From contig CM120640.1 in NCBI GenBank assembly GCA_051362555.1, positions 44,122,788 through 44,186,787 of the forward strand: a stretch of 64,000 nucleotides of DNA. The letters run 5' to 3'. Origin of the DNA: Lingula anatina (taxonomy: Eukaryota > Animalia > Brachiopoda). A model generated the notes under the pieces. That model was not told the origin of the DNA. It searched no databases and saw only the letters and a list, made by a program, of their open reading frames with translations. Numbering within the stretch: the stretch's first letter is position 1; each line of letters begins with the position of its first letter. A program made the translations under genes and the position numbers. Below are positions 12,096 to 43,434 of the stretch, in pieces.

Positions 12096-12126
<31 letters not shown>

Positions 12127-14937: not shown

Positions 14938-17900
14938 ATGGGAAATGAAGCATCGACATCCCGGCTTCTCCATAATTTGGAGGAGCTTGAACAGGAGCTT
15001 GAACGAGACCAAGTCTCTAAGTCCAACCAACCACTAAAGGTGCAACATGGCTGGGATTCCAAGGACTGCTCTAATAATATGACAGTGCTAGATGACGGTT
15101 TGAAGGTAGGATTCACGGATCACCAGAAAAATCTTCTCAACTTTAAGTTTCTGACGTATCCTAACATTTCATCAAAATAAATTCATAATGTTTTTAGCTT
15201 GGCTGTTGACAAACAAACAAACAAACGGAGGTGAATACTTTATCTCCTTGGGGGAGGGGGGGGGGGTTAAAAGCCATAGTCTCCATCAACTTTAGATGCA
15301 AAAACGCCGAGTGACTTGATTTAAAAGTTTTATCTTTGTAACTCTTCTTTTGTAAAATCCTGTACCTGCTAGTGATTTGTTTCAATTTCAAACTGACTCC
15401 TTACAACGAAAAAATACGGGTTTTCATTTCATTATAATTTCACTATTGATTAAAGACTTGTTAAAACCTTCACGTTTTCTTTATTCACTAAGTCGTACAA
15501 TCATACTTTGTATCCATTTTACAGGTGCGTAGAAATAAATCTTTACAGCCTAGGACGGATGCTGTTAGGGGCAAGAGAGGCTATGGTCAAGGGATACATA
15601 TCTGGAAGATTCACTGGCCCCAGTCGATGAGAGGCAGCAATGCTGTTATTGGTGTGGCTACATATCAGGCCCCTCTGACTTGTACTGGTGAGTTTGGTTG
15701 GATGGATGACAGGAAAAAATTCACCTAGACCTATACATGTACATAAGTTATGTATAAAAGTGAAGACGTTTTTTATGCTTGAGGTATAGCAAGGGCAACT
15801 TATGAAGTTTTGTAGCATGTTTTTTCCATAGAGTTTTTACAGCTTTTATTGTTTTTGAAGAATATATATATATATGTATAATTATAATTATAATGTTTGC
15901 ATATAGGCGATCTACTTCAAGTGCTTCTAATCTTATCATTCTCTCGAAGGTTATTCGTCTTTGATTGGTTCCAATGATCAGTCCATGGGATGGGATATAG
16001 TCCGCAATGTTCTTCTCTTCAATGACTGCGTCATCAGAAAGTACCCAGATGATGCACCTGGTGAATTTGTTGCTCCTGATGTCATCACTGTAATTCTCAA
16101 TATGGACTCGGGGACTCTTGGCTTTAAGGGTGAAGGAAAAAATTACGGAGTGGCATTGAAGGGTCTTCGCTTACTGACGAAAAAACTTTACCCTGCAATA
16201 AGTGCAACATATGGCAACTGTGAAGTGGGTATCGAGTATATCAGCAGTACAGGTAAATGCTGGGCTCAGAGGAACTTTTACTTGGTAAAATCTAAAAAAA
16301 ATCCTATGCTTTATTTTTTGGTAAAAAATTCAAAAAATCAATCTTACAAAAAAAATTATAGTATTAAATTATTGTTGAAAGAAGACACAGGAAAGTAGCA
16401 CAATAGGCCACCAGTACATTGTGACTAGTTCATTGTTGCAAGATAGGACTGCTTTAATTAGTTTGCAATCTGTTTTGAACAAAATCATGTATGAGTAGTA
16501 TGCTGCACCCGACCTCCAGTCTGCTTCAAGGCCCACTGAAAGAATCAGTGCAAGAGGTACGCTCTGTACCCTAAATACAATCATCGCACCTTAAATCCTA
16601 AGATAAGTGTTGAATATAGCTTTTCTATTCAGGATATTTTCTTTTCTTTTTTAATAAACAGATCAAATAGTTTTGATTCAAACTTAATCTGGCTATTTCT
16701 TTCAGAGCAAGGAAGACCACAGACAAAACCATGTCCTCCGGCTCTGCCTCTGATATTCAAAAAGCAATGTGGGGAAAATATCGAATTGTCAAACGACAGC
16801 ATTCAAGCGGAAAGATCAAAGTACCTTTTGATCAATTATTCACTTTTAAAAGCAGAAAATAGAAAATGAAAAAAAGTTAATAACTAATTTTTATAGTAGA
16901 GAATTCACTGCAATTTAAAATATCCAACTACAGGTATTTTATCGACGGCAGGGTTTTTACATGTATGTATTGTATTTTATTGCTGATATATTGTAAATGC
17001 CCCTTGGGATGTTAAAACGTCTTCATTTTGATTATGTTTTAGACATATCTTTTTGCATCTTATTTTATTAATATCCTCACATGGCGTTAACAAAAAAAAA
17101 AATATAAAAACCGAATGTCACGCATTATAACAATAACGTTTTCCATTCCAGTTTTATGTCTGACTCAGACAAAGCAGTTGTTTTGACTTCAAGAAGTCTA
17201 CAACCGAATGAAAAGTTTGAAATATGTGTTAAGAAAACCCTGGATAAATGGCCAGAGGGTCTAGCTATCGGAGTTGTGGCTCTGGAAGCAGGATTCGAGA
17301 TTCCGAGAAGTCTCCCTGGACAAGCCGCAGATATAGCGTGGGTCTGGAAAGGCACGGATGTTTAGCATCATCGAAAGACGGAAAGGAAATTGGATTTTAA
17401 CCTTAATTCCGCAAAAGTATGTATTTAAGAATACAATTTTGTTTCGCCTTTGTGAACAAAGGGGTCTCTGCTGGAGCCAAGCCTGTGTAGTACTGTTCCT
17501 AATGCCTCTGTACTAATAGTACTGTATGAAACAAAGTAAAAACGTTTCTCATTTTCCCAATCAACAAGAAAATCCCGAGATCGAAAGAGTAAGTCCAATT
17601 GTTTAAATCAAAATTCACAAAGTTTTTATTCCATTTATGAGAAAGGGTAAATGTGCAGGTGGTTGATTGTTTGTCAATTACACGAGCGACCAATACATTT
17701 TTCGTTAACGCGGTTACCGAAATCCTAAAAGTCAGGGAGTTGATTACACTCTTTAGCTCTAATTTCAGATTGGCGACAAATTTGGTGTCATGAGAAAGGA
17801 AGATGGTGCTTTGCACTTCTTTTATAACGGTCGAGATATGGGAATGGCAGCCACAAATGTTCCTCAGAAAATACACGGAATTGTTGATGTCCATGGAAGT

Positions 17901-20900
17901 ACTATACACGTAGAATTAGTGGGTAAGAATGCTATATCTATTGAAAAACGACAAATGATCTTTCTACATGTACATGTATGTGAGTTTTGTCCCGCAGGCT
18001 GTTAAACCTGCCGAATAACCTTTGTTTGACCGTGTGCTAGCATCTTATATCACAATGAAACTAAAAATAAATTCATAATTCATGTTCTTTTTTGTTTCAT
18101 ATTCAACAGAACAAATTCGAGAGGAAACCACAGAGCCAACAGGTGCCGCTTTTACCGGCATTTCTAGAATAGATCGCGTCTTTGAAAAAATGAGACAAAC
18201 GATCGATTTATTAAAGAAGAAAGACGAACGCTCTATTCGATCCACTATACATATGGTCCACGAACATTTGTACATGCTGTACGCCAAGCATAAGGCCCGA
18301 AACCTTCGGCAGTTAATGGGTGACAAGCTGGTCCAGTTGAATGCTGCCTTCCATATTACTGAATATATAAAATTTCTCTGTGAGTGCGGGATTGAAAACG
18401 ACAAAATCCATGAGCTGCTTCGTACTGTTTGTTTGAATTACAGTGATGCCAGTCTGCAGTTTGCCAGGTCCATCGGACAGACGGATCTGCTTGGAATCCT
18501 GTCTGCAGAACTTGCCAAGTATCAGAATAGATATATGAGTGAAGAGGTAAGAAAGAAAAACCAATTTGATATCCCCAATCCATTAGATAAATCGGAAAAA
18601 ATTAAATGATGTGTGTCTTTGCATTAGTTTTGACTGGGCTTAAATTTATGACAAGTTTCACTTTTGAAAAAGGTATCAATTAAGATTGTTACTGATTTTC
18701 ACCAACGGAGTCTCCAGTTATTCTGAAAATGTAATACATGTTATATTGTTCCATATACTTGCTGTATATATATCATACTGTACTTAGATATAATTGCCAA
18801 ATTATCTTCAAACAGAGATGTGTTATTTATTCAAAACTGTTGTTTTCAACACCAGGGGATAAGAGATATTGTTATGTCAGCACTTGCCATTCTTCACAAC
18901 TGCTCAAAAGTTACGGAGAACCGAGCGGTGTATTACCTCCTCGGTGTGATCAACATCCTGGTCCCTTATACGAAGCCAGGGAATGACGAAAGAGTCGCAA
19001 TGACGGCCTTAATGACCTTGTCCTACCTTGTTACTATTGACCAACAACACCTGATCCAAGCAGAGCCATCAGCTATTGCATACATTCTGAAGAAACTCGA
19101 CGAAGCACTGAGAAACGCAGAAACTCATCAATCGGACGGTTTCCATGCCTACGAAATTGTGGAATCGCTTATAAACCTATCGAAAAGCGCACAGAATCGG
19201 GTGACGACGGTACAGAAAGGAGGCATTCCCCTGTTTGTGAAAATGATGAAAGTCGGTAATCCACGAGAGCAGGAACTCGCCCTGAACGCCGTGTGGGAAC
19301 TTATTAACGGTGGCGACGGGACGCTGTCAACTATCTCTAGAACAGAAGGGCTATTAGACGAAGCGAAGGCTTTAAAGAGCAGCAAAGTCGAAACTGTTCG
19401 CCAAGCCGCTGAAAGGATTTTATTGAGGCTTGATACGCAGACTCAAATGTTTTCCCAGAGGTTTGGTGAGATAATAGTTTTTCGTTTAAAAAAGTAAATA
19501 TCAATCAATCAATTATTCAATCGTGAACTGTGAATTCTTGGATATCATTAGTGAAAGAAATTACGTTTTAAACAAGCTGTTCTGTTCAAAGTTTATTACC
19601 TTTCCAGAACCGGCACCCATTCCAAAGTGCACTTACAAAGATATCTGCGACAAATTTGTTGAGACACTCAACATACATGGTAAGTTTTCATTAACTAAAA
19701 AGTATTTTCAAATTCATTTCCTTGTGATATTTTTAAGATACTATTACCCTATTTTAAACTCTTTTTATTCATTCACTCAACTGCTTTTGGTTATGTACAT
19801 GTATTTCCATGCATTGCAATTTAACAGAGAGATATTTTGATGCCAAGTATCATCACTGCTACTGCAACGTTTGTCATAATGAGAGAGGAGACAATCTGTA
19901 TTATACTCGCGGAAATCCACCCAAGGACTATGGTATTCCAATTGGATGGTACAGGTATGCCCTTTGGTGAGTATAACAACGACAATCCGGGTTTGCGCTT
20001 ACCTTATCTAGAAATGCTGGTAACTTGGAAATTTGAATGTAATCTTCAACTTCTCAGTGTGTCACAGTCATAAGCAAAACTTAAAATGTAACAATTATTA
20101 TTCATGTATATTGTAAAACCGCAAAACTTTTTGCTTTTTGTTTTGTTATTCAATGCTACTGTGGGATATTCGTCTGACTATTTGAAGTTACTTTTTACTG
20201 TATCAAGGAGCATGTATGAACTGTCTATTTTTTTTTTCAATGTGGCACCAGCCTTCCAGCTAAAGCAAAGGCAATGAACGTATTGGACAACTGGCACAGG
20301 GCATTCCATGGCACTAAGAAAGATGTGGTTAGCAAGATACTTGAAGTCGGGGAACTGCTCATTCCAGGTTAGGGAACCGATTGTCTTATGACGTCATGGA
20401 ACAGGCAATTGTATTGCGAATAGCTGAAATTCACAAAATGTGCGATATTTATGTGTCAGTGTCTATAATTAATGTCAACTTCGCTTAATTCATTCCCTTA
20501 TTCAAGTGCACATGCGGACTTTTTTTCCTTTTTTTTTTTTTTGGGGGGGGGGGTCCGTACGTGTTCTCGAACTCTTACTTTTTTTGGTTTTATTTTTTTA
20601 TTAATCTTTTTTGGAGGGCATGGGAAAAGGATCTTGTTTCAGAGATGCCATATCAGAGTTATATAAAAGTTATCAACATTTGTATTTCATGGACTTTAGG
20701 CGACGAAGCGTTGGGCGGCGACAAAGTAAGCGAGAGGGAAGGCCATTTCAAAGACGACCATAAGCCCGAAGAGTTCGACACCAAGAAAATATTTTTATCT
20801 CCCAGTATCCGTTATGCTGGCCATGGCGCTTATGCCATGCCACACAAGTATGTATTCGTGTGTTGTATTCGTGTGGTATTTGTATAAATTGTAAACAGGG

Positions 20901-22210
20901 GTAAAAAAACAGGTTACACACAGTATGTTTGTGTATTAAAGTGTTTGTTTAAGAAGAAACATGCGGTCAGTATCGTGTTATTCTAATGCTATTCTGATTT
21001 AAAGTGGTATCACGAAATTAAAAATAGTTATTATTATATTAATAACAAAATGGTAATTATTGGTTTTATTCTTATAAAGCAACTGTTGACAGTTTAGTGA
21101 AATGATTCGGCAAAATATAGACTAGATGCTGTTGAATACAGGATGCAGCATTGATTTAAGTTTTTTTAGCATGTAAAATTCGAGTCGTTTGATAAAATCA
21201 GTAAAGTCAGCTCAGGAGGACACTTCCTATCTTCCTGTATGACCAGGTTAAACTTGCGGAGTCCGTGCACGCTGTAATTAGTGTGGGACCGCGAAACTGT
21301 ATCTGGGTCTGCTTTGGAGCTCGTACCTGACGCCGTTACTCTCTGCCCAGGGCGCATCTACTGATAACATTAATGAGTGCGAAAGGATATGCAACAGCCA
21401 TGGGGCAATAAAATGTTTACAATTTGGGTGGAGCTTAGACTAAGGCCCGTTGTCTATTGGTTGATTGAGAAACCCTGTATTAAAGGCGTGGACTAAATAG
21501 TTAAATGCTGATAGGCGCGGGCTAGGCCACTGTAGATTTCGGCAACCCTGAAACTATTCTAGCTCGTTTGAATAAATCGTTCTCTGAGGGAAAACTGCTT
21601 TTACATACCGCAAGTGAACACGATTTATTGCTGACTCAACAAAACCATCCACGAGGCCAGTGATTTCATTTTCTGGAAGTTGTATCAGCTCATTGGGAAT
21701 GGGCTGAATCCGTGCTGTTTTCCCTGCAACTTTGTATGTAATGATTACAATAACAACCTAGTAGACTTAGAAAGAAACTATTTCACATGCAAGAAATGTT
21801 ACATCGTATGATGACGTCGCGATGCATCGTCACATAAATTACGTCAAAACGCAGGGACATGTAAACGACATTTTAATTTTAATGGGTTAAAAGACACAAG
21901 GTTCAATATTCTGGATGACATTTTTTCACCTTTTTTTTAATTCTTGAAACTGGTTTCTTCATAACAAATTAATCATGCACTTTTTATCAAATATTTCAGA
22001 TTTGAGGTATCAGGAAAAACCTATGTGGCCCGTGTAGCACTTCAAGTGTGCATTCGCCCAGGCAGCTATGATGTCGGCGATCAAACTATCGGAGAAACCA
22101 AGCCAATCGACCCAAAGTTTGATAATCAGGAAATAGAGTGGTCAACAAAAGAGTGTGGAAGCACCATTTTGTATGGTCTGCTGGTGAAATTGGAAGAACA
22201 AGCTTCTTGA
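14938..22210 (+). pseudogene. Copy 1 of the myristoyl-SPRY-NHR-ARM-NEURL4-type ART gene; premature stop and lost exon
   Basis: Exons 14938-15105, 15525-15687, 15950-16252, 16706-16820, 17152-17416, 17769-17922, 18110-18546, 18856-19465, 19608-19679, 19828-19966, 20252-20367, 20700-20847, 22000-22210, all GT-AG and phase-compatible. In-frame TAG at 17363-17365 where copies 2 and 3 have TTG. The acceptor of the 63-nt exon is deleted near 16500. Confidence 0.8.
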
Positions 22211-23155: not shown

Positions 23156-23210
23156 ATGGTGTGGATGCGAAACACACTGACGAAGGGTTCCAAAATATTT
23201 TACGACCTAC
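23156..23210 (+). pseudogene. Stranded duplicate of TIMM44 coding exon 1, cut before its splice donor
   Basis: ATGGTGTGGATGCGAAACACACTGACGAAGGGTTCCAAAATATTTTACGACCTAC matches 44546-44600, and the upstream TIMM44 promoter region also matches. Confidence 0.8.
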
Positions 23211-23616: not shown

Positions 23617-24306
23617 CCATACGGGGGTTGTTAATCTGCTGTAAACTCCTGTCCTGTTCGCGTGTATGTGGGTCAAACATAATACAGGTAAAATTCTGGT
23701 TAATTGTGATCACTTCATCTTTGTATATGATTACATATTCACCACTAATATAAACTGTAGATAGATTTTGAGACAACATCGCGTATTTGATACATTAGAA
23801 CCTCATGTTCGATTCGTTTCTCATTTCCGTAAACACAGCATAATGGCTGATTTTGGTTGTTGCTTTTGTTATTGCTACTCCCCTCTCCATGCATTCCTCT
23901 ATACTAATTATGTAGAATTATGTAGAAAGATTGGAGTTAATGAGTATATATCAATTAACCAAAGAAGATCTGTTTAATAAAAAGTACGTCTACAGGTCAC
24001 AGCTACTTTCGTTTTCAAGTCATTCGTAACCTGAAGGCCGCCGTGTTTGTTGTGATCTCTGGGGGCTTTTTCAACGTCTTACAGTGTATCGTGGCAATTA
24101 CAATCTGTTATACTGGAGCATGTAATGATTTAAATTTTGTGAATATTAAATGTAGTTGCCGAATACGAATTAATGAAGTATGTATGTCTATCGTAACCGT
24201 AAGTATAGTGGCGCTACTTCTTAACTGTGTTAACTCATTTTTAATTCAGGCCTATATATGACTTTTGCATTACCATTCAAAGCATTCAGATAAATGTAAA
24301 GTCGCA

Positions 24307-27300
24307 ATGGGAAATGAAGCATCGACATTACGTCTTCTCCATAATTTGGCGGAGCTTGAACAGGAGCTTGAACGAGACCAAGTTTCTAAGTCCAACCAAC
24401 CACTAAAGGTGCAACATGGCTGGGATTCCAAGGACTGCTCCAATAATATGACAGTGCTAGATGACGGTTTGAAGGTAGGATTCACGGATCACCAGTAAAA
24501 TATACCCACATTTAAGTTTCTGACTATCCTGAACATTTCATCAAAATACATTCATAATGTTTTTAGTTGACAAACAAACAAACAAATAGAGGTTGGGGGG
24601 GGGGGGGGGGTAAAAAGCTATTATCCACCCCTGTGCCGAACATTTTATAGTCCTCATCAACTATTTTCTAGATGCAAAAAGGCCGACTGACCTGATTCAA
24701 AAGTTTTATCTTTGTAACTACTCTTGAGTAAAATTCCGTATCTGCTAGTGATTTGTTTCAATTTCAAACTAGACTTCTTATAACCAAAAAAAGGGGAGGG
24801 CGGGGATCATCATTTTATTATAATTTCACTATTTATTAGAGAATCGTTAAAACCTTTACGTTTTCTTTATTCATCAAAGTTGTACGCCCTACAATCATAC
24901 ATTGTACCTATTTTACAGGTGCGTAGAAATAAATCTTTACAGCCTAGGACAGATGCTGTTAGGGGCAAGAGAGGTTATGGTCAAGGGATACATATCTGGA
25001 AGATTCACTGGCCCCAGTCGATGAGAGGCAGCAATGCTGTTATTGGTGTAGCTACCTATCAGGCCCCCCTGACTTGCATTGGTGAGTTTGGTTGGATGGT
25101 GACAGGAAAAAATTCACCTAGACCCACACATGTACAAAAACTGCGTATAAAAGTGCAAAGCCTTTTATGCTTGAGGTATAACAAGGGCAACGTATAATTT
25201 GGACTCTTTAAATTACATACTGTATAGGCAATTTGTTTCAAGTGCTTCTAATCATATCATTCTCTCGAAGGTTATTCGTCTTTGATTGGTTCCAATGATC
25301 AGTCCATGGGGTGGGATATAGTCCGCAATGTTCTTCTCTTCAATGACTGCGTCATCAGAAAGTACCCGGATGATGCACCTGGTGAATTTGTTGCTCCTGA
25401 TGTCATCACTGTAATTCTTAATATGGACTCGGGGACTCTTGGCTTTAAGGGTGATGGAAAAAATTACGGAGTAGCATTGAAGGGTCTTCGCTTACTGGGG
25501 AAAAAACTTTACCCTGCAATAAGCGCAACATATGGCAGCTGTGAAGTGGGTATCGAGTACATCAGAAGTACAGGTAAATGCTGCTATTGTTTGGTTTAAT
25601 CTAAAAAATATCATTTGCTTTATTTTTTGGTAAAATATTACAAATAATCAATCTAAATGCTAAGCTCAGAAGAACTTTTATTTGGTATTATCTGAAAAAT
25701 ATCCTTTGCTTTATTTCTTAGTAAAATATTGAAATGTTGACTCGATTTCTTTTACAAAAATATCATACCAAATAAAGATTAAATAAATAATTGATGAAAA
25801 TAGACACACAAAAGTATCACAATAGGCCACCAGTGCATCGTAACTAGTCTATTGTTGATGGATAAAACTGCTTCAGTTTGCAACGTTTTGAACAAAATCG
25901 TGAGTAGTATGCAGTATGCACGATATTTCCCCTCATACTCTCAGCACAGATTTACAAACCTACATGTATTTTGTTTCTTTCGATTCATGTAAGACGCAGC
26001 ACCTGCACCCGACCTCCCGTCTGCTTCAAGGCCCACTGAAAGAACCACTGCAAGAGGTACGCTCTGTAACCTGACTACAACCATTGCACCTTAAATCCTA
26101 GAATAAATCTTGAATATCGTTTTCATTCAGGAAATTCTATTTTATTTTTTATTTTATTATAGACGGATCACATAGTTTTGTTTCAAACTAAATCTTTTTA
26201 TTTCTTTCAGATCAGGGAAGACCACAAGCAAAACCATGTCCTCCGGCCCAGCCTCTGAAATTCAAAAAGCAATGTGGGAAAAATATCGAATTGTCAAATG
26301 ACAGCATTCAAGCGGAGAGATCAAAGTACGTTTTGATCAATTATTCATTTTTAAAAGCAGAAAATGGAAAATGAAAAAAGTCAAAAACTAATTTATATAG
26401 TAGAGAATTTACTGATTTTTTAATTTTAGATTCAGGTATTTTGATAGGGGTTTTGTGTATTGTTATTTATGTATTTTGTTGCTGAAATGTTGTAAATGCC
26501 CCCTTGGGATGTTAAAACGTCTCCATTGATTATATTTTAGACATATATACCTGCATTATATTTTATGAATATTCTAATACGGCGTTTACCAACAAAAATA
26601 AAAACCGAATACCACGCATTATTACAATAACGTTCTGTACCTGCTCATTTTTATTCCAGTTTTATGTCTGAATCAGACAAAGCAGTTGTTTTGACTTCGA
26701 GAAGTCTACAACCAAATGAAAAGTTTGAAATATGTGTAAAGAGAACTCTTGGTCAATGGGCAGAAGGTCTAGCGATCGGAGTTGTGGCTCTGGAAGCAGG
26801 ATTCGAGATTCCGAGAAGTCTCCCTGGACAAGCCGCAGATATAGCGTGGGTCTGGAAAGGCACGGATGTTTTGCATGACCGAAAAACGGAACGGAAATTG
26901 GATTTTAACCTTAATTCCGCAAAAGTATGTATTTAAGGATTGTGTGTATTTATTATGTTTCGCCTTTTTGAAGGGGTCTCTGCTGGAGCCCAGTCGGTCT
27001 TGTACTGTTCCTAATGCCTCTGTACTAACAGTACTGTATGAAACAAAGTACAAACGTTTCTCACTTTTTCCCAATCAACATGAAAATCCCGAGAGCGAAA
27101 GAGTAAGTCCAGTTGTTTTAATCGAAATTCACATTGATTTCATTTCATTTATGAGAAAGGATAAATGTGCAGGTGGTTGATTGTTTACCAATTACACGAG
27201 CGACCAATACAATTTCGTGAACACGATTACCGAAATCCTAATAGTCCGGGAGTTAATTACTATCTTTAGCTCTAATTTCAGATTGGCGACAAATTTGGTG

Positions 27301-28159
27301 TCATGAGAAAGGAAGATGGTGCATTGCACTTTTTTTACAACAGTCGAGATATGGGAATGGCAGCCACAAATGTTCCTCAGAAAATACACGGAATTGTTGA
27401 TGTCCATGGCAGTACTATACACGTAGAATTAGTGGGTAAGAATGCTATATGCATTGAAAAAGGACAAAGATTTATTTTCATAAATGATGATACATGTATG
27501 TCCATGTGAACTTTGTCCCGTGGGCTGTTCAACCTATCGAATTACCCTTGTCTGACCGTGTAATAGCAACTTGTATCACAATGAAACTGAAAATATAATA
27601 TATTAAAAACAGGTTTGAAATCTTGACATTCATGATCTTTTTTATTTTATATTCAACAGAACAAATTCGAGAGGAAACCACGGAGCCAACAGGTGCCGCT
27701 TTTGAGAGTATGTCTAGAGAAGAACGCGCCTTTGAAAAAATGAAACAAACAATCGATCTCTTGAAGAAGAAAGACGAACGTGCTATTCGATCCACTGAAC
27801 TCATGGTCTTACAACATTTGTACATGTTGTACGCCGATCATAAGGACCGAAAGCTGAGGCAGTTAATGGGTGATAAGCTGGTCCAGTTGAATGCCGCCTC
27901 CCATATTACTGAATATATGAAATTTCTACGTGATTGCGGGCTTGAAAACTATAGAATCTTCAAGTGTTATGATCTGCTTCGTAGTGTTTGTTGGAATTAC
28001 AGTGATTCCAGTCTGAAGTTTGCCAGGTCCATCGGACAGACGGATCTCCTTGGAATTCTGTCTGCAGAGCTTGCCAAGTATCAGAATAGATATATGAGTG
28101 ACGAGGTAAGAAAAAAATCAATTTGATATCACCCAACCCATTAGATAAATTGGAAAATG

Positions 28160-28195
<36 letters not shown>

Positions 28196-30480: not shown

Positions 30481-30516
<36 letters not shown>

Positions 30517-31743
30517 ATGTTTGTTTTGGAAGAACCCTGCTGTCAGTATCGTATTTTTCTAATGCTATATTGAATCATGTTATCATGAAAATAATCATAG
30601 TAACAATAATAAAAATAATAATAATTTTACCGATTTTTCTCCTGTAGATGAGGATTCTGAAAATTAAATTAAAGAACAAGCTTAAGCATCACTATCGTCT
30701 CTTCCTTTATTTTCATATTTATTATTCATTTACCAAGTCTGTATAAATAATAAATGTGAAAAATAATAAATGTAAACTTAAAGAAACATTACAAATATAA
30801 ACAGAAATAGATATGGTTTGCATCGCAAAGGGTGATCCTGTAGCCCAAGAAAGACGTTGGAGATATTGAAGTGCGTTTTGAATATACATGTAAATGCGTT
30901 TCGGTACGCAGCTTCAAATATCATGACATTAAATCTTACGATCTTGCGACCACGACTCTCTATCACTCCTGTCTCTTCAACATAACAAATTAAAGAGGAT
31001 GTTTATACACGTGATTCTTTGTTAATTTTTGGATTAAAAAGACTTTCGCCACACTTGATACATTTTTAACAGGTACATGTATACATGTAGCATACAGTGA
31101 ATCGTCACAAAGATATCACTCTAAAACAGTTAGAACAAACGAAACAATACTTGAGTAAGCGAGATTTTAGCTTGACTTTCCTTAAAAGGCGACAAGACTT
31201 ATGGATTACTTACTTGAATTTCTACACCCCATTGTGACAAAGAAACAAATTACAAATTCAAATTCAAATTACGAAAATACAACACCTGTGAGGTGTCAAG
31301 TAAGTGAAATTTGTTTTGTATCTAAGGCGTCATAATAAGTATTATGACGTCGGGATGCATCGTTCACTTAAATTACGTCACAACGCAGGAACATGTAGCC
31401 TAAATGACATTTTAATTTTAATGGGTTAAAAGAGACGTGGTTCAATATTATGAATGATATTTTTGACCTTTTTTATTTTTGAAGCTGGTTTCCTCATAAA
31501 AGATAAGTCATGCACTTTTCCAAATATTTCAGATTTGTGGTATCGGGAAAAACCTATGTGGCCCGTGTAGCACTTCAAGTGTGCATTCGCCCAGGCAGCT
31601 ATGATGTCGGCGATCAAACTATCGGAGAAACCAAGCCAATCGACCCAAAGTTTGACAATCAGGAAATAGAGTGGTCAACTAAAGAGCGTGGAAGCACCAT
31701 TTTGTATGGTCTGCTGGTGAAATTGGAAGAACAAGCTTCTTGA
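24307..31743 (+). CDS. Copy 2 (intact, ~993 aa): N-myristoylation motif, SPSB-type SPRY, neuralized/NHR domain, ARM repeats, NEURL4-type ADP-ribosyltransferase domain
   Basis: 14 exons: 24307-24474, 24919-25081, 25271-25573, 25994-26056, 26211-26325, 26660-26924, 27282-27435, 27660-28105, 28441-29059, 29210-29281, 29464-29602, 29857-29972, 30287-30434, 31533-31743; total 2982 nt with an open frame. Motifs: MGNEAS; TDAVRGKRGY...AVIGVAT...SMGWD...LYPAISATYG (SPSB SPRY); FKKQCGKNIELS...GDKFGVMRKEDGALHFF...VDVHG (NHR); GGIPLFVKMM...EQELALNAVWEL (ARM); CYCNVC...RGNPPKDYGIPIGW...WHRAFHGT...SPSIRYA...QVCIRPGSY...EIEWSTKERGSTILYGLLVK (NEURL4 C-terminal ART). Confidence 0.88.
28161..28192. repeat. (TG)n microsatellite, with a paralogous run at 38798-38834
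   Basis: Direct dinucleotide run in the same intron of copies 2 and 3. Confidence 0.9.
30483..30512. repeat. (GT)n microsatellite, with a paralogous run at ~41134-41172
   Basis: Direct dinucleotide run in the last intron of copies 2 and 3. Confidence 0.9.
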
Positions 31744-32725: not shown

Positions 32726-33410
32726 CCTTATCTTGAAAACACGGCTTTTATTTTATAAAAAGAGTATCCGCTAACGCATCAAATTATATATCCATACCCA
32801 AGCAGAAGCATTGGTGGATGTAGGATTTTACTTAAAGCGACAGGGGGTCACAAGGACAAAAAGGACAATTTTACCACATTACGTTGGGTACAGGGGTGGA
32901 AAATTGATGGATTTGTTTTTTTTTTTGCTTCTTGTACATTGGAGGGGGGGGGAGAGAAGCTGAGAATATTATTCCTTTCGAAAGTAAACATTTTCAAGCA
33001 AACTGAGCTTAGATTTAACTAGGAAAGAGTTCTCGTTCATATCAAAAGCGCATTTGATGGATACATGCCAATGGTAACGTTCGTGCCTCCCTAACATGAA
33101 ACATTTTAAAGACAAATATGAACAAGTGATAAAAACATAGTCCCCTCAACAAATTTAACAATGAACCTTCGATCATTTATATATCCAGGGCTCTAATAGG
33201 CCTATCTCAAACAAAATGTTATCCCACACACATTTCTTTGTTTGAAACCATATTAAAGGTACGGAGTATTTAAACACTTTTTGAAGGGGGGGGGGGCTCA
33301 CACAAAATTATTTTAATTGCTGTATGGACCCAATGATGAATATTCTGAATATTATTATTCTGAATATTATGGAACAACAAGCAGGAGTTTATGATCGATT
33401 CCGAGATGAC

Positions 33411-33440
33411 GGGGAATCTCGTCAGCTTCAGTCACGTGAC
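33411..33440 (+). promoter_or_regulatory. kB-like GGGGAATCTC and E-box GTCACGTGAC upstream of copy 3
   Basis: Positionally equivalent to the elements in units 1 and 2. Confidence 0.4.
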
Positions 33441-34154
33441 CCATACTTGGGTTGTTTATCTGCTGTAAACTCCTGTCCTGTTCGCGTGTATGTGGGTCAA
33501 ACATTATACAGGTAAAATTCTGGTTAATTGTAATCACTTAATCTTAGCATATCATTATGATGACATCAGAAGCAACTGATTATTTTATTCACGCCGAAAA
33601 GAAACTGTAGATAGATTTTGAGACAACACCGCGTATATGATACATTAGAACCTATGTTCGACTGTAGCTCACTTCCGTAATCTCAGCAATTGCTGATTCT
33701 GGTTGTTGCTTTTGTTATACTCCCACTCCATGCATTTCCTGGTACTAAGTAGCGCAGTTATGAGGAAACAAATAAAAATTATAATGTAAAAAGATTGAAG
33801 TTGATGAGTGTAAATCAATTAACAGAAGAAGAAAATAAAAAGTAGGCCTACTAACACATGTCAAGGTCACAGCTACTTTCGTTTTCGATTCCGTCGTAAT
33901 CTGAAAAACGCAGTGTTTGTTGTGATCTCTCGGGACATTTTCAACCTCTTATCATGGAAATTACAATCTGCTATACTGAAGCATGTAATCATTAAGATTT
34001 TGTGAATATTAATGAATTAGTTGCAGACGGGAATACGAATCAATGAAGTAGGCCCTATGTATGTGTAGAGTAAACTGTGTTTACTCATTTTTAATTCAGG
34101 GCTATATGTTAAATTTGATACCATTCAGTGCATTCAAATTAATGTCAATTCGCA

Positions 34155-34961
34155 ATGGGAAATGAAGCATCGACATTACGTCTTCTCCATAATTTGGCGG
34201 AGCTTGAACAAGAGCTTGAACGAGACCAAGTTTCTAAGTCCAACCAACCACTAAAGGTGCAACATGGCTGGGATTCCAAGGACTGCTCAAATAATATGAC
34301 GGTGCTAGATGACGGTTTGAAGGTAGGATCTACGGATCACCAAAAAAAAAAGTTTCTGATCTATCCTGAACATTTCATCAATGTTTCATAATGTTTTTAG
34401 TTTTGCTGTTGAAAAACAAATAAACAACCCATTATCCATCCCTGTGCCGCACTTTTTATAGTGTCCATCAACTGTTTTATAGAAATGAAAAAAGGCTGAG
34501 CGGCCTGATTCAAAAGTTTTATATTTGTAACTCTTATTTAGTAAAATCCTGTATCTGCTTGTGATTTGTTTCATTTTCAAACTAGACTCCTTATAGCGAA
34601 TAGGGAAAAAACGGCTGTCTATTTTATTATATTATTGATTAAAGTCTTGTTTAAACGTTTGTTTTCTTTATTCATCAAAGTTGTAAAATCATACATTGTA
34701 CCTATTTTACAGGTGCGTAGAAATAAATCTTTACAGCCTAGGACGGATGCCGTTAGGGGCAAGAGAGGTTATGGTCAAGGAATACACATCTGGAAGATTC
34801 ACTGGCCTCAGTCGATGAGAGGCAGCAATGCTGTTATTGGTGTGGCTACATATCAGGCCCCTCTGACTTGTATTGGTGAGTTTGGTTGGATGGTGACAGC
34901 AAAAAAAAATCACCTTGACCCATACATGTACATAAGCTATGTATAAAAGTGATTATGCTTG

Positions 34962-35003
<42 letters not shown>

Positions 35004-38000
35004 TAAAATCGGATTACTGTATTACGTACGTTGATCAGAAGAATAAATGTCACAAAGTTTTAAGTGTAATTTGGCCTCTTTAAATTGCATATAGGCGATC
35101 TGTTTCAAGTGCTTCTAATCATATCATTCTCTTGAAGGTTATTCGTCTTTGGTTGGTTCGAATAATCAGTCCATGGGATGGGATATTGTCCGCAATGTTC
35201 TTCTCTTCAATGACTGCGTCATCAGAAAGTACCCGGATGATGCACCTGGTGAATTTGTTGCTCCTGATGTCATCACTGTAATTCTCAATATGGACTCGGG
35301 TACTCTTGGCTTTAAGAGTGATGGGAAAAATTACGGAGTGGCACTGAAGGGTCTTCGGTTACTGGGGAAAAAACTTTACCCTGCCATAAGCGCAACATAC
35401 GGCAACTGTGAAGTGGGTATCGAGTATATCAGAAGTATATCAGGTAAATGCTGGGCTCAGAGGAACTTTTACTTGAAATAATTTGAAAAATATCGTTTCC
35501 TTAATTTTTATTTAAATATTAAAATGATGACTAAATCTTACAAAAAAATTCAATATTTAATAAATTATTGATGAAAAAAGACACAGAAAAGTATCACAAT
35601 AGGCGACCAGTGCATAGGGGAAACCAGGGCTAGTTGGCCCAGTTAGACAGTTTTGTGCCAACTAGGAATGAGTTAGAGTAACAAAACCGGTTTCAAAGTA
35701 AGCCCCATGAACTAAGCTACGTATGCAACGTCATTATTTTTCAAAAATAATGCCAGATGGCTCACAATTTGACAAAAAACGCAGTTAAGGTGGGGGGGGG
35801 GGCAACTTGCCCAGGGTTGGGGCAAGTTGGCACCCTATATGAAAATGAAGTAAGTATCCCAAGTAAACGTCTTGAAATACATTTTTATACATTTTTAATT
35901 TATTACATTGATTTTTGAGAGTCTTTGATGAATAAATAGTTCATATGAGGCAGATTTATTGAGGTTTCCGTACGTCACGTTGTATGTGTTGCAAGAACCA
36001 ATATATCAGACTCATTATCTATCAATAAAATTTGTTTTGTTTTAATTAAGAATAAATTGATACTGGTTTACAGCAGCTTTTTAATGAATGAAAACGAATA
36101 ATAAATTTTCGTTTTAAAAGAAAGTAACAAATTCAGTTTTAAACCATTGAGTTTGTTTCAACAATGGTCTCTAGCTCTGTTGCGCGCAAAGGTTTGTGGG
36201 TAATATGAGGGACCAACCTGCCCCGAGTCAAGGCGGCCAAAAGCCTATGAAAATAGATTTTTAAATCCCTTAAAGAAAATTACTTTTAGGTGCAAAAATC
36301 GTTTATTTCGACTCACCGCTTAAGTAAAACTTTTTAACGCCCGCCACTTCCTTAGCATTGTATGCTACGGACACTTTACAAGAGTATGTGGCCAATTTTT
36401 TTTTAACCTCGTAGTTACTTTTTCATAAATTGACGGGGGGGGGGGGGGGGAGGCAACTTAACCCCGGGGTCCAACTAGCCCCGGTCTCCCCTAGTAACTA
36501 GATTGTTGATGGATAATGCTAGTGTTTTGAACAAAATCGTGAGAAGTATGCAGTATGCACAATATTTTCTCTCATACTCTGCTCACAATTTTAAAAACCT
36601 ATTTGTTTCTTTCGATTCATGTAAGACGCAGCACCTGCGCCCGACCTCCCGTCTTCTTCAAGGCCCACTGAAAGAACCACTGCAAGAGGTACGCTCTGTA
36701 ACCTGAATACAACCATTGCATCTTAAATCCTAGAATAAATCTTGAATATCGTTCTCATTCAGGAAATTTTATTTTATTTTTTATTTTATTATAGACGGAT
36801 CACTAGTTTTGTTTCAAACTAAATCTGGCTATTTCTTTCAGAGCAGGGAAGACCACAGGCAAAACCATGTCCTCCGGCCCAGCCTCTGAAATTCAAAAAG
36901 CAATGTGGGAAAAATATCGAATTGTCAAATGACAGCATTCAAGCGGAGAGATCAAAGTACGTTTTGATCAATTATTCACCTTTAAAAGCAGAAAAATAGA
37001 AAATGAGGAAGTTAAAAAATAATTTATGTAATAGAAATTTCACTGACGTTTTTATCTATCTTCAGGTATTTTATCGACGAAAGGGGTTTTATGTATTGTT
37101 ATTTAAGTATTTTGTTGCTGAAATATTGTAAATGCCCCCTTGGGATGTTAAAACATCTTCAATTTGATTATATTTTAGACATCTTTTTGCATTATATATT
37201 ATGAATATTCTTATATGGCGTTAACCAATAAAATTAAAAACCGGATGCCACGCATTATTACAATAACGGTTTGTACCACCTCATTTTCCATTCCAGTTTT
37301 ATGTCTGAATCAGACAAAGCAGTTGTTTTGACTTCGAGAAGTCTACAACCAAATGAAAAGTTTGAAATATGTGTAAAGAGAACTCTTGGTCAATGGGCAG
37401 AGGGTCTAGCGATCGGAGTTGTGGCTCTGGAAGCAGGTTTCGAGATTCCGAGAAGGCTCCCTGGACAAGCCGCAGATATAGCGTGGGTCTGGAAAGGCAC
37501 GGATGTTTTGCATGACCGAAAAACGGAACGGAAATTGGATTTTAACCTTAATTCCGCAAAAGTATGTATTTAAGGATTGTATGTATATATTTATTATGTT
37601 TCGCCTCTGTGAACAAAGGGGTCTCTGCTGGAGCCCAGTCTGTCGCGTATTGTTCCTGATACCTCTATATTAATAGTGCTGTATGAAACAAAGTAAAAAC
37701 GTTTCTCATTTTTCCCAATCAACGTGAAAATCCCGAGAGCGAAAGAGTAAGTCCAGTTGTTTTAATCGAAATTCACAAAGATTTCATTTCGTTTATGAGA
37801 AAGGATAAATGTGCAAGTGATTGATTTTTTTATCAAATACACGAGCGACCAATACATTTTTTGTGAACATGATTACCGAAATTCTTATAGTCAGGGAGTT
37901 AACTACTATCTTTAGCTCTAATTTTAGATTGGCGACACATTTGGTGTCTCGAGAAAGGAAGATGGTACATTGCATTTCTTTTACAACGGTCGAGATATGG

Positions 38001-38795
38001 GAATGGCAGCCACAAATATTCCTCAGAAAATACACGGAATTGTCGATGTCCATGGAAGTACTATACACGTAGAATTAGTGGGTAAGAATGATATATGTAT
38101 TGAAAAAAGGACAAAGATTTATTTTTATCAATGATGATCTGCCCATGTGAATTTTCCCGCGGGCTGTTCAACCTGTCGAATAACCGTTGTTTGACCGTGT
38201 ACTAGCACCTCATATCACAGTGAAACTGAAAGTAAAATGAATTTAAAACAGGTCTGAAATCTTGACGTGTTCTTTTTTTATTTCATATTCAACAGAACAA
38301 GTTCGAGAGGAAACCACAGAGCCAACAGGTGCCGCTTTCACGCGCATGTCTAGAGAAGATCGTGCTTTTGAAAAAATGAAACAAACGATCGACTTCTTAA
38401 AGAAGAAAGACGAACGCACTATTCGATCAGCTGGGCTTATGGTCTACCAAAATTTGTGCATGTTGTACGCCGATCATAAGGACCGAAAGCTGAGGCAGTT
38501 AATGGGTGATAAACTGGTCCAGTTGAACGGCGCCTTCCATATTACAGAATATCTGAAATTTCTCCGTGATTGCGGGATTGAAAACGACAAAATCTATACG
38601 TGTTATGAGCTGCTTCGTAGTGTTTGTTGGAATTACAGTGATGGCAGTCTGAAGTTTGCCAGGTCCATCGGACAGACGGATCTCCTTGGAATTCTGTCTG
38701 CAGAGCTTGCCAAGTATCAGACTAGATATATGAGTGACGAGGTAAGAAATAAGAAACAATTTGATAACCCCCAACCTATTAGAAAAATTGAAAAA

Positions 38796-38838
<43 letters not shown>

Positions 38839-41134
38839 GCATTGACTTTGACCGAGCTTAAATATATTACAACTTTAACTTTTGACCTAGGTGTCAATTA
38901 AGATTGTTACTGATTCTCACCAACGGAGCCTCCAGTTATTTTGAAAATGTAATTCATGTTATATTGTTCCTTATACATATATATCACACAAAATAAAATG
39001 TACTATACTTGCTATCTACTTAGATACATGACAAATTATCTTCAAACAGAGATGTGGTATTCTATCAAAGCTAATGTCTTTTAATCCCAGGGGAAAAGAG
39101 GTATTGTAAAGTCAGCATTTGGAATTCTTCACAACTGCGCAAAAGTCGCAGACAACCGAGAGGTGTATGACCGCCTTGGTGTAATCAACATCGTTGTTCC
39201 GTATACGAAGCCAGGGAATGACAAAACAATCGCAATGTCAGCCTTAATGACCTTGTCCTACCTGGTTACTATTGACCAACAACACCTGATCCAAGCTGAG
39301 CCATCAGCAATTGCAGACATTCTGAAGAAACTCGACGAAGCACTGAAAAACCCAGCAACTCATCAGTCGGACGGTTACCATGCCTACGAAATTGTGGAAT
39401 CTCTTATAAACCTATCGAAAAGTGCACAAAATAGGGTGACGACAGTACAGAAAGGAGGCATTCCCCTGTTTGTAAAAATGATGAAAGTCGGTAATCCACA
39501 AGAACAGGAACTCACCCTGAACGCCGTGTGGGAACTTATTAACGGAGGTGACAGGACGCTGTCAACTATCTCTAGAACAGCAGGGCTATTAGATGCAGTG
39601 AAGGCTTTAAAGAGCAGCAAAGTAGAAACTGTTCGTCAAGCCGCTGAGAGGATTTCATTGAAGCTTGATACACAGACTCAAATGTTTTCCCAGAGTTTTG
39701 GTAAGGTGATAGGTTTTCGTTTAGAAAAATAAATATAGATTAATAATTAATAATAATAAATTAATATAAATAAACCATGAGCAGTGAATTGTTGGTAAAC
39801 ATGAGTGAACGTAATTGCATTTAGACAAGCTATAGTGTTTAAAGTTTATTACCTTTCCAGATCCTACACCCAAACCAAAGTGCACTTACAAAGATATCTG
39901 CAACAAATTTGTTGCGACACTCAACATACATGGTAAGTTCTCATTAACTTGAAAAGTATTTTCAAATTCATTTTTTTATAATATTTTTAAAGATTCTATT
40001 CGCCTATTCTAAACTTTTTTACTATGTTTTTAATAAGGGAGTAAAGCTTGTACACGATGCACTCAAATGTTTTCGGTTATCTACATACATTTGCATGCCT
40101 TGGAATTTTACAGAGACATATTTTGATGCTAAGTATCATCGCTGCTACTGCAACGTGTGTCATACTGACAGAGGAGATAAACTGTATTATACTCGCGGAA
40201 ATCCACCAAAGGACTACGGTATTCCAATTGGATGGTACAGGTATGCCCTTTGGTGAGTATAACAATGCCAAACCGGGTTTGGTAACTTAATAATTTGAAT
40301 GATTTTATGTCTTCAACGTCTGCGTGTGTTACAGACGGAAGCAAAACTTAAAATACTGTGCAAAATAGTTTTATTCATGTATATTGTGAAACCGCAAAAC
40401 TTTTTTGCTTTTTGTTTTGTTATGCAATGCTACTGTGGGATAGTCTTGTGGCTATTCGAAGTTTGTTTTTTTTTACTGTATCAAGGTGCATGTATGAGCT
40501 GTCTTTTTTATGTGGTACCAGCCTTCCACCTAAAGCAAAAGCTATGAACGTATTGGACAAATGGCACAGGGCATTCCATGGCACTAAGAAAGATGTGGTT
40601 AGCAAGATACTTGAAGTCGGGGAACTGCTCATTCCAGGTTAAGCACTCAGTTTGTCTAATGAAGTCACGGGACAGGCACTTGTATTACGAACAACTCTCG
40701 AAACGTGTGATATTTATGTCAGTGTCTAATTAATGTCAACTTCACTTCATTCATCTACTTATTAAAGTTTACACGCAGGACTTTTGTTTTAAATTTTTGT
40801 TGGTCCGTACGAGATCTCGAACTCGTGTATTTTTTTTGTATTATTTTTTATTAAACTTTTTTTTGGAGATGCCATATTAGAGACATATAAAAGTTATCAA
40901 CATTTATTTTTTCATGTATTCATAAACTTGGATTTTAGGAGACGTAGCGTTGGGCGGCGACAAAATAAGCGAGAGGGAAGGCCATTTCAAAGACGACTAT
41001 AAGCCTGAAGGGTTCGACACCAAGAAAATATTTGTATCTCCTAGTATCCGTTATGCTGGCCATGACGCTTATGCCATGCCACACAAGTATGTATCCGTGT
41101 GTTGTATCCGTGTGGTTTTTATGAAAAGTAAACA

Positions 41135-41169
<35 letters not shown>

Positions 41170-43434
41170 TGTAAATGTTTGTTTTAGAAGAACCCTGCTG
41201 TCAGTATCGTATTTTTCTAATGCTATTCTGATTTAAAGTAGTATCACGAAAATAATGATAAGTTTAATCATGATATTGATAATAAAAATCATTGTTATTA
41301 GTTTCATTCTTATAAAGCAGAAGTTGTCAGTTTAGTGAAGTGGTAAACATCAACATAGATTTCTAATGATTTATTAAATTACATCAAGTTTGACGCAAGA
41401 GAGCAGTAATTGAGACAAATAAATTTTCATCATTCAGCATTTTTTAGAAAATCGATGTAAAGCTACATGACAACATAAAAATTTTGTTATCCATTATCAC
41501 ATCACTCCAACACTGGCCTCCTCCAGAACTGAATACCATGACCTTTACTCGACGGTGACGTTTGGAGTAGATGTTTGGTCGATGACCGCGTTTTCGGTGC
41601 TCAAGCTAAGGGTGGAATGAAAATATAGATTTGTAAAACATTTAATAACCTTGGATATAAATTTGCTAATTATAAACGCACAAACTACGACGTATACCCG
41701 CCTCCAAGGTCGACGCATCCGGGAACTGCACTATTCTTTAATTCTTTTTTAAGTTACCAGTGCCTGACTCAAGGGACATTATCCAAAATTTGGTGTAAAT
41801 GCAGTGATGATTTTGTCTGTGACGATTTTATTTGTGTTACTTTTTATACAAAGATTTTTTTTAAAAATCTACTACATTATCAGACAAAATTTTGTATGCA
41901 AAAATATAGACTACAGGATGCAACATTGATTTAAGCTTTTCGGCGCGTAAAATTCGAATTGTTTGATAAATGAGTAAAGTCAGTTCAATATAGGACACTT
42001 CTTATGTGTCTGAAGTCTTATGATCTACTTGTACATACCGCAAGTGAATACGGTTTATTGCTGACTCAACAAAACCATTCACGAGGTCATTGAGATCTTT
42101 TTCTGGCAGTTGTGTCAGCTCTTTGGGAATGGGCTGAATCCCTGCAATTCTATATGTTATGATTTCATGAATAACCTGGTAGACTTAGATATAAACTGTC
42201 ACATGTAAAGTATTACGTCCCATATTTCAAGATGAAAAAAAGCAATTTTGATAACTTACAAGTATTATACCATACGAGATATAGTCAAAGATAAAAGACA
42301 TATAAACGATAAAACTATATATATACTATATATGTCACGTGAACATTAACATACATTGTAATACGTTTACCCATACTTTTGATTTTGCGAAGGATCCATT
42401 GCCGCTTTTACCGATTTTTCTCCTGTACATGGGGATTCTGAAAATAATTAAAGAAGAAGCTTAAGCGCATCCCAATCGTCTCTTCCTTTATTTTCACATT
42501 TATTATTCACATCAAGTCTAAATAAATGATTATGTGATAAAAGTCGCATGTGAACTTAAGAAACACAAAAACAAGTAAACAAAATTAGATATAGTTTGCA
42601 TTACTAAGGGCCATCCTGTAGCCTAAGAAGACATTGAAGTACGTTTTGAATATATAGAAATGTGTTTCTGTACACAGCCTCAAATTAAATCTTATGACAT
42701 TAAATCTTACCATTCTTTGCTTCATTTTTGCGACCACTACTCTCTATCACTCCTGTCTCTACAACATAACCAATTAAAGACAATATTGTTACGCGTGATT
42801 CTTCGTTAACTTTGGGATTTAAAAAAGTTACACAAAGACATTCGCCACACTTGATACATTTTTAAATGGTATAGTATACAATGAATAGTCACAAAGATAT
42901 CATTCTTAAACAGTTAGAACAAACGAAACAACACTTGAGTAAGCGAGATTTTAGCTTGACTTTCCTTAAAAGGCGTCAAGAATTATCGATTACTTAGATT
43001 ACTTACTTGAATTTATACACCCCATTGTGACGACGAAACAAATTACAAATTCATTGCGGAAAAAATTTAACACCTGTGAGGTGTCAAGAACTTGAAGTTT
43101 GTTTTGTATCTAAGACGTCACAACAAGTATTATGACGTCGCGATGCATCGCTCACTTAAATTACGTCATAACGCAGCGTTTTCCTCATAAGAGATAAATC
43201 ATGCACTTTTCCCAATATTTCAGATTTGAGGTATCAGGAAAAACCTATGTGGCCCGTGTGGCACTTCAAGTGTGCATTCGCCCAGGCAGCTATGATGTTG
43301 GCGATCAAACTATCGGAGAAACCAAGCCAATCGACCCAAAGTTTGACAATCAGGAAATAGAGTGGTCAACTAAAGAGCGTGGAAGCACCATTTTGTATGG
43401 TCTGCTGGTGAAATTGGAAGAACAAGCTTCTTGA
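34155..43434 (+). CDS. Copy 3 (intact, ~991 aa) of the myristoyl-SPRY-NHR-ARM-NEURL4-type ART gene
   Basis: 14 exons: 34155-34322, 34713-34875, 35138-35443, 36626-36688, 36842-36956, 37297-37561, 37928-38081, 38296-38741, 39091-39700, 39861-39932, 40114-40252, 40522-40637, 40939-41086, 43224-43434; total 2976 nt with an open frame and the same motifs as copy 2. Confidence 0.88.
34965..35000. repeat. (TA)n microsatellite
   Basis: Direct dinucleotide run in intron 2 of copy 3. Confidence 0.9.
35617..36491. mobile_element. 875 bp non-autonomous TIR element with a TA target-site duplication (Tc1/mariner-pogo-like), present only in copy 3
   Basis: TIRs GGGGAAACCAGGGCTAGTTGGCCC and (reverse complement) GGGGAGACCGGGGCTAGTTGGACC, with TA on both sides. 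The paralogous site in copy 2 is empty (CAGTGCATCGTAACTAG, ~25831). Confidence 0.88.

Follow-up and report, generated by a model that had tools for sequence, protein, structure and literature searches.

A tandem array in Lingula anatina encodes an apparently undescribed SPRY-NHR-ARM-ART family ending in a NEURL4-type ADP-ribosyltransferase domain

What kind of protein is encoded by a tandem array of three collinear genes in the brachiopod Lingula anatina, and what might it do? The array occupies positions 14938-43434 of a 64,000-nt stretch (GCA_051362555.1, CM120640.1, positions 44,122,788-44,186,787, forward strand), which we refer to as the window. In the original prediction, each gene encodes an MGNEAS start, an SPSB-type SPRY domain, a single neuralized homology repeat (NHR), armadillo (ARM) repeats and a C-terminal NEURL4-type ADP-ribosyltransferase (ART) domain, a combination not recognised from any characterised gene. 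Our analysis bears out this order of domains, all of which are known, while the four-domain architecture is apparently undescribed: in the literature searched we found no account of it, its age or its shared ARM (de Souza and Aravind 2012 or an ART natural-history review may show it). We propose, with a probability of about 0.5, that the sequences represent a membrane-anchored, substrate-recruiting ADP-ribosyltransferase family that would likely act in defence or stress signalling.

The array consists of three repeats of about 9.4-11 kb each on the plus strand, in which the predicted motifs occur three times in the same order. Exon limits were set for copy 1 from three-frame translation and then transferred to copies 2 and 3. 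This genomic reading gave 13 coding exons per copy, with every intron GT-AG and phase-compatible, and an encoded order of MG start, SPSB-type SPRY, one NHR, ARM repeats and NEURL4-type ART. The ARM repeats span about 320-330 aa, somewhat less than the ~350 aa first given. All three copies are present as predicted; only two of them are open, as copy 1 carries an in-frame stop codon in this assembly.

The single spliced product was checked with RNA reads, for which six of nine runs, chosen by species label, were mapped and 6-30% of each run was read. In copy 3, all 13 coding introns were joined by reads; for 11 the joint fell exactly on GT..AG, and for the other 2 it lay within a few bases and had mismatched letters. 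At least 15 joints were obtained for this copy, among them the 13 coding introns, one joint in the 5' untranslated region and one shorter linker form. The joint from ARM to ART was present in 10 reads from two of four runs; X8 contributed 6 and X9 4 reads, and among the joints listed X7 and X3 had none. The reads also brought to light an exon overlooked in the genomic reading, 63 nt long and in frame, which encodes a linker from SPRY to NHR. The intact products of copies 2 and 3 are therefore 993 and 991 aa long, with a Pro-rich linker and then the NHR following the SPRY. Reads with a shorter linker (36688>36883 and 26056>26252) have 13 codons fewer and two extra letters; we read them as another allele or a paralogue with a different SPRY-NHR linker. 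Joints between copy 1 and copy 2 ran in both directions and were taken as cross-mapping rather than as read-through. Repeats at 35600-36500 (intron 3 of copy 3) and 44170-44290 (downstream) attracted many partly matching RNA reads and are probably transcribed interspersed repeats.

The C-terminal domain is of the NEURL4 type by sequence. Residues 745-969 (numbered here and below as in P0001, the Lingula RefSeq protein XP_013389395.1 of 969 aa, which carries the label 'neuralized-like protein 4') correspond to the C-terminal part of multi-NHR NEURL4 proteins from a crinoid and a spider (both over 745-965) and from an abalone, and Lingula P0006 is 52% identical to the seven-NHR abalone NEURL4 (P0187; E 6e-72). 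FHGT and QEIEW occur in all three window copies. Among 35 ARM-ART proteins, H831, G832, T833, S884, P885, Y889, E946 and W947 are invariant and E944 is present in 34, and C749, C755, C776, C778, C781 and H782, kept in 33-35 of the 35, probably form a zinc site. H831, E944 and E946 match the HGS and ELEW motifs of NEURL4, mutation of which abolished the activity of the human protein in vitro (PMC8932523; articles cited by number are represented here by excerpts of their text). The NEURL4-type ART had been defined earlier (cited in PMC3417536; PMC7955679), and its HG[ST] and E-x-E-W motifs appear in PMC8932523 and PMC7955679. Of 30 named matches of Atlas language-model features, 25 were PARP clusters (best 0.95). 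A structural model of P0001, built from a 65-row alignment (mean pLDDT 89.5, pTM 0.64; a single-sequence fold reached pLDDT 35.6), contains four folded units with flexible linkers, and residues 750-969 have a pLDDT mostly >83, with HGT, FVS and EW on strands. When the whole model was used for fold searches, the matches were taken up by SPRY, NHR and ARM proteins; the absence of PARP-family proteins and SARM1 from the 50 matches listed excludes nothing. The same ART is fused elsewhere (P0020, P0046, P0049, P0051, P0082, P0098, P0113, P0127, P0185, P0014) to LRR, ZU5, GT4-conflict, PARP14-like macro/WWE, thioredoxin-kinase, ubiquitin, cold-shock, Kelch or actin-fold modules, and a Dimorphilus protein has SPRY, a region without assigned domain, and ART. 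At the level of protein sequence, the NEURL4-type ART behaves as a putative mobile effector in marine invertebrates.

The N-terminal half likewise matches the original prediction. Pfam detected SPRY, Neuralized and a weak Arm, each on single exons, and a scan of the full-length protein gave no SOCS box (E<=1), SAM or TIR. The SPRY matches SPSB2/GUSTAVUS at E 1e-42 (P0001) with about 41% identity, and its modelled structure matches SPSB1/2/4 and GUSTAVUS with Z 30-32 and a root-mean-square deviation (rmsd) of 1.2-2 Å (best Z 32, 1.4 Å over 191 residues). The single NHR matches PDB 2e63, the NHR of KIAA1787/NEURL4, with Z 25.3 and an rmsd of 2.2 Å over 167 residues. Matches from a viral-library structure search were SPRY/lectin-like and were not used. 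The consensus start for N-myristoylation is Met-Gly-x-x-x-Ser/Thr, and MGNEAS fits it in all three copies. Across related, non-independent sequences, Gly2 is found in 15 of 18 family proteins compared to 24 of 174 other collected proteins, and Gly2 together with Ser/Thr6 in 12/18 compared to 12/174, so that the predicted myristoylation signal is upheld. SPSB proteins recognise [DE]-[IL]-N-N-N peptides. In SPSB1, peptides are contacted by Arg77, Thr111, Tyr129 and Val216-Trp217-Gly218 (PMC2923778); the corresponding positions of the window copies, mapped on the SPRY alignment, are R, S, Y and T-Y-G, so that the contacts are retained in part.

Between NHR and ART, residues 405-736 match armadillo proteins in structure (Z 15-20, rmsd 4-10 Å), and profile matches of this region include beta-catenin, Vac8 and designed ARMs. 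SARM1 was absent among the best 60 of 189 ARM sequence matches, which were generic ARM proteins; this excludes nothing. The homology searches also returned ARM-TIR-SAM proteins of a brittle star (Amphiura) and an ARM-TIR protein of amphioxus (Branchiostoma). When the ARM regions of 16 family proteins were compared with those of 5 ARM-TIR proteins (three nearly identical) by hhalign, 320 columns were aligned with probability 100 and E 7e-42. By this homology, one ARM module is joined to two NAD-using folds. In addition, the ARMs of amphioxus ARM-TIR and of amphioxus Mind-bomb-SH3-ARM-ART proteins are mutual best non-sister BLAST matches and group together with a support of 94 in the Shimodaira-Hasegawa-like approximate likelihood ratio test (SH-aLRT). 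A single clade of the three TIR-bearing rows was not rejected by the approximately unbiased (AU) test (p 0.126), and we thus count only at least one effector swap; repeated swaps between TIR and ART were set aside, as the single TIR clade fits too. In all members the ARM lies immediately before the effector; in the P0001 model a low-confidence flexible linker (residues 739-741) divides it from the ART. The Amphiura and Branchiostoma TIRs carry a C-x-x-E motif, which we take to be the catalytic glutamate motif. Many animal TIRs are catalytic, and the catalytic glutamate is important, according to excerpts of bioRxiv 2026.04.20.719644. ARM-TIR proteins have been catalogued as a molluscan class without assigned function, with 11 genes in Aplysia (PMC9334734); their ARM may be a different one.

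The architecture is not confined to Lingula. For its range, a full phmmer scan (best 150 of 2674 matches listed, 20 looked up by name) was combined with two word-based searches, which lose distant relatives. The SPRY-NHR-ARM-ART order was present in at least 18 proteins from 8 named species, labelled automatically as NEURL4 or SPSB2: two each in Lingula (one with two NHRs), the annelid tubeworm Lamellibrachia and the hemichordate Saccoglossus, five in Ptychodera (two isoforms) and three in Glandiceps, both likewise hemichordates, one each in the stony corals Oculina, Montipora and Porites, and one further record. Variants comprise NHR-ARM-ART and SPRY-ARM-ART proteins in hemichordates and an anemone, SH2 insertions, and Mind-bomb-SH3-ARM-ART proteins in amphioxus. 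The family is expanded in hemichordates and Lingula; in Ptychodera there are 12 ARM+ART clusters, all on a contig of one and the same length. Among the named matches (20 of the best 150 of 2674, plus the word searches), ARM-ART proteins of molluscs, arthropods or vertebrates were not seen; losses are not proven by this, because few matches were named and word searches miss distant relatives. In a quick ART tree of 108 rows, from which rows <185 aa and Lamellibrachia had been left out, all 37 ARM-bearing rows and one fragment fell into a single group, separate from the multi-NHR NEURL4 proteins (SH-aLRT 88; unstarred support values of 88 and 94). In an ARM tree of 39 rows, Lingula grouped with Lamellibrachia and the anemone Actinostola with the corals (99 in both cases), a pattern that vertical descent would predict. 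As there are cnidarian as well as bilaterian members and the ARM tree groups them in this way, the family is likely older than the cnidarian-bilaterian split. The domain shuffle of the original prediction is not a local one, since cnidarians and bilaterians share the architecture.

Within the array, the three copies are 89-93% identical in protein, with a synonymous divergence (dS) of about 0.17 and introns 70-91% alike. The overall ratio of nonsynonymous to synonymous divergence (dN/dS) is 0.20-0.30, and no domain reaches 1 (0.36-0.53 in ARM exon 7). The copies are recent tandem paralogues under purifying selection; assembly or haplotype duplicates are ruled out by the dS of 0.17, the intron divergence and the presence of three copies. 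In copy 1, 91 bp are deleted across the acceptor site of the linker exon, and the private changes of this copy are 48 nonsynonymous to 42 synonymous, compared to 44 and 85 for copies 2 and 3 (Fisher p=0.005). It looks to be decaying because of this extra nonsynonymous change and the lost splice acceptor, and is probably a pseudogene or null allele. Variation among the copies is concentrated in the ARM (68/331 sites vs 43/567 elsewhere, p 3e-8), mainly in its N-terminal half (51/188 vs 17/143 sites). The putative groove helices (long third helices) vary more than the others (32/114 vs 19/123, p 0.03), helix classes being assigned from predicted secondary structure. This pattern would fit a diversifying sensor or weaker constraint. 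P0001, to which a copy 2 exon is 99% identical, is a mosaic that equals copy 1 in exons 1, 2, 6 and 7 and copy 2 in exons 9-13 and is unlike all three copies in exons 3-5; it is either a recombinant allele or a chimera produced by the assembly or the gene model. P0002, a second Lingula RefSeq protein, which lies on a scaffold of the same length, differs from all three copies at 21-28 of the 206 exon 8 residues, and at least four versions therefore exist in Lingula.

How would such a protein work? Myristoylation at Gly2 would quite likely hold it at the inner face of the membrane, and the C-terminal domain would probably be an active ADP-ribosyltransferase like human NEURL4. The SPRY of SPSB proteins (PMC2923778) recruits substrates for a ubiquitin ligase, and so does the NHR of Neuralized; by analogy, SPRY and NHR would, slightly better than evenly balanced, bring targets to the ART instead. 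Whether the ARM groove would bind a variable ligand, and so set when or on what the enzyme acts, is an even call, and so is host defence as the setting. Expansion and loss, the presence of pseudogenes, shuffled modules and the LRR-ZU5, GT4-conflict and PARP14-like partners of the ART speak for defence. A patchy range, recurrent expansion, exchange of modules and change focused on the ARM are seen more typically in defence genes; the signs of this indirect, evolutionary kind include the 12 Ptychodera clusters, the varying N-terminal modules (SPRY, NHR, SH2, Mind-bomb SH3) and the one dead copy. SPRY-like domains are, moreover, common immune sensors (PMC8195603).

A number of observations weigh against this proposal. 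For the enzyme, just 2 of the 21 ART domains gave a Pfam PARP match, at best with E 0.024, and the best PDB sequence match of the ART is a weak one to Tpt1 (E 0.033). NEURL4 itself is only 'PARP-like', with weak direct PARP similarity (PMC10450202); its activity rests on one study in the literature examined and is given as 'not determined' in a table of PMC7955679, and the roles reported for it lie in mitochondria and centrosomes, not in immunity. For the transcripts, SPRY is tied to NHR, ARM and ART by a chain of junctions, with no read covering a whole transcript. Most reads are 90-99% alike to the copies and only 38/463 and 25/453 reach >=99%, which means that transcription and splicing of the family were seen rather than expression of particular copies. 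For the recognition modules, the SPSB peptide contacts (Tyr, V-W-G loop) are variable across the family. In no domain of the three copies did dN/dS exceed 1, and the contrast of synonymous and nonsynonymous changes between ARM and the rest (53/48 vs 65/34) is not significant (p 0.06), so that relaxed constraint accounts for the variation of the ARM no less well than positive selection. Corals, finally, have one full-length cluster per species, 47-50% identical to a hemichordate protein; these few, conserved members and the non-immune roles of NEURL4 call for caution on defence.

Among the other explanations, a switch of the strict SARM1 type appears unlikely. Here the ARM would clamp the enzyme until a danger ligand arrives, and release would lead to bulk NAD+ consumption and cell death. 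The same ARM module does stand ahead of C-x-x-E-bearing TIRs in Amphiura and Branchiostoma, and it directly adjoins the effector in every member; yet the Lingula protein has neither SAM nor another oligomerising domain by Pfam, its model (flexible linker 739-741, pTM 0.64) fixes no closed state, and the characterised relative NEURL4 is reported to transfer ADP-ribose to proteins and not to be an NADase (PMC8932523). The predicted logic of 'ARM plus NAD-using effector' is in keeping with the ARM shared with ARM-TIR proteins; SARM1-like gating and NAD+ depletion stay at the level of analogy. We also find it rather improbable that the family is a housekeeping or developmental modifier, a membrane-anchored ART tagging endogenous partners such as receptor or ligand tails and germ-plasm proteins, with expansions by tandem-array drift. 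NHR and Mind-bomb SH3 modules derive from Notch-ligand ubiquitin ligases, and purifying selection throughout, the conserved low-copy coral members and the decay of copy 1 would all suit this view. Against it stand the patchy range, as far as matches were named, along with recurrent expansions, exchanged modules and change centred on the ARM. In invertebrates, CpG-rich regions also tend to mark non-housekeeping genes, and it is in such a region that the array sits: the window has 44-81 CpG per 2 kb up to 44 kb and 10-37 past that point. Endogenous peptides, those of VASA and Par-4, are nevertheless what SPSB-type SPRY domains bind (PMC2923778). A catalytically silent scaffold, whose ART-like domain would bind NAD+ or nucleic acid and transfer nothing, is very improbable: several PARP-like domains are inactive or without determined activity (PMC7955679) and the direct PARP similarity is weak, but the active-site His, Tyr and Glu are invariant in 35 of 35 proteins from corals to brachiopods.

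Returning to a membrane-anchored, substrate-recruiting ADP-ribosyltransferase, one may tentatively go further and imagine a so far unrecognised class of invertebrate immune switches in which one ARM sensor is interchangeably coupled to a TIR or to a NEURL4-type ART. SPRY-NHR-ARM-ART would then be the branch of this class that is anchored to membranes and ADP-ribosylates, and it would predate the split of cnidarians and bilaterians. Its paralogues would diversify the groove of the ARM to sense different ligands, in a system parallel to SARM1 but writing ADP-ribose. If the ARM does gate the enzyme, corals and other invertebrates, whose immune signalling is poorly known, would have a sensor-effector design of a new, NAD-based kind. 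More generally, a second, ancient NEURL4-type ART family appears to have been hidden under the label 'neuralized-like protein 4', while NEURL4 has hitherto been treated as a lone PARP-like oddity, and the shared ARM connects two uncharacterised classes, ARM-TIR and ARM-ART. With the short single-NHR proteins, the NEURL4-type ART may also become easier to study biochemically.

Table 1 Features of the array and its surroundings (positions in the window)
Feature	Position	Strand	Remarks
Mab-21-like open reading frame	6395-7576	-	Single long open reading frame; Pfam Mab-21 and Mab-21_C
G protein-coupled receptor	9246-12702	-	Two exons; rhodopsin family, Pfam 7tm_1
Copy 1 (probable pseudogene or null allele)	14938-22210	+	MGNEAS start to stop codon end; exons 14938-15105, 15525-15687, 15950-16252, 16706-16820, 17152-17416, 17769-17922, 18110-18546, 18856-19465, 19608-19679, 19828-19966, 20252-20367, 20700-20847, 22000-22210; GT-AG, phases, in-frame stop
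Copy 1, in-frame TAG	17363-17365	+	Codon 321, in NHR; TTG in copies 2 and 3
Copy 2, non-coding 5' exon counterpart	ends near 23687	+	RNA joint 23688>24271, extra letters between
Copy 2, intact gene	24307-31743	+	MGNEAS start to stop codon end; 14 coding exons, 993 aa
Copy 2, exons 1-3	24307-24474, 24919-25081, 25271-25573	+	MG start, short helix, SPSB/Gustavus-type SPRY
Copy 2, linker exon	25994-26056	+	63 nt, 21 aa, phase 1-1; RNA joint 25571>25992 GT..AG
Copy 2, NHR exons	26211-26325, 26660-26924, 27282-27435	+	Pfam Neuralized; PDB 2e63
Copy 2, ARM exons	27660-28105, 28441-29059	+	Module homologous to that of ARM-TIR; most variable part between copies
Copy 2, Cys/His cluster and ART exons	29210-29281, 29464-29602, 29857-29972, 30287-30434, 31533-31743	+	FHGT, FVSPSIRY, QEIEW
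Copy 3, non-coding 5' exon	33400-33512 (start approximate)	+	RNA joint 33512>34115, extra letters between
Copy 3, intact gene	34155-43434	+	MGNEAS start to stop codon end; 14 coding exons including linker 36626-36688, 991 aa
Inverted repeat	54395-54945		110 nt, 95% complementary, arms 331 nt apart
Alpha/beta-hydrolase exon	56905-57630	+	N-terminal Cys cluster

The surroundings of the array hold several further features. The open reading frame 7 kb upstream is a cGLR/Mab-21-like gene that keeps G-S and E-x-D; its third acidic position is presumably Asn, judged by motif. The hydrolase exon we take to be ABHD17-like, and the inverted repeat resembles a miniature inverted-repeat transposable element. 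CpG content drops just past the array near 44000, the higher values applying to 1-44 kb and the lower to 44-64 kb, as at a methylated gene-body border.

Compared with known systems, the family is neither NEURL4 nor SPSB, as had been predicted. With NEURL4 it shares a homologous ART with HG[TS] and E-x-E-W and an NHR closest to the KIAA1787/NEURL4 structure; it differs in having one NHR plus SPRY and ARM, whereas NEURL4 has six NHRs (PMC8932523; 5-7 in invertebrate matches) and neither of the other two. Moreover, it starts with MG, in contrast to NEURL4, which is imported into mitochondria, and its ART groups separately in the quick tree. Its SPRY is close to those of SPSB1/2/4 and GUSTAVUS in sequence and structure, but no SOCS box follows and the output would be an ART rather than a Cullin ligase. 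ARM-TIR(-SAM) proteins have the homologous 320-aa ARM directly ahead of an NAD-using effector fold, there a TIR instead of an ART and without the added SPRY and NHR. SARM1/dSarm/TIR-1 resemble the family in an ARM upstream of an NAD-using catalytic domain and a likely membrane-tethered N-terminus, whereas SAM and TIR are lacking from the family, four other domains making up the folded sequence. Among the matches listed for the ARM there are generic armadillo proteins and not the ARM of SARM1 with its NMN/NAD allosteric site, which excludes nothing. Canonical PARP14 belongs to another ART subfamily and has other accessory domains; the family nevertheless shares with such macro-PARPs the design of a multidomain ART with reader modules, and the PARP14-like Glandiceps protein P0051 ends in a NEURL4-type ART.

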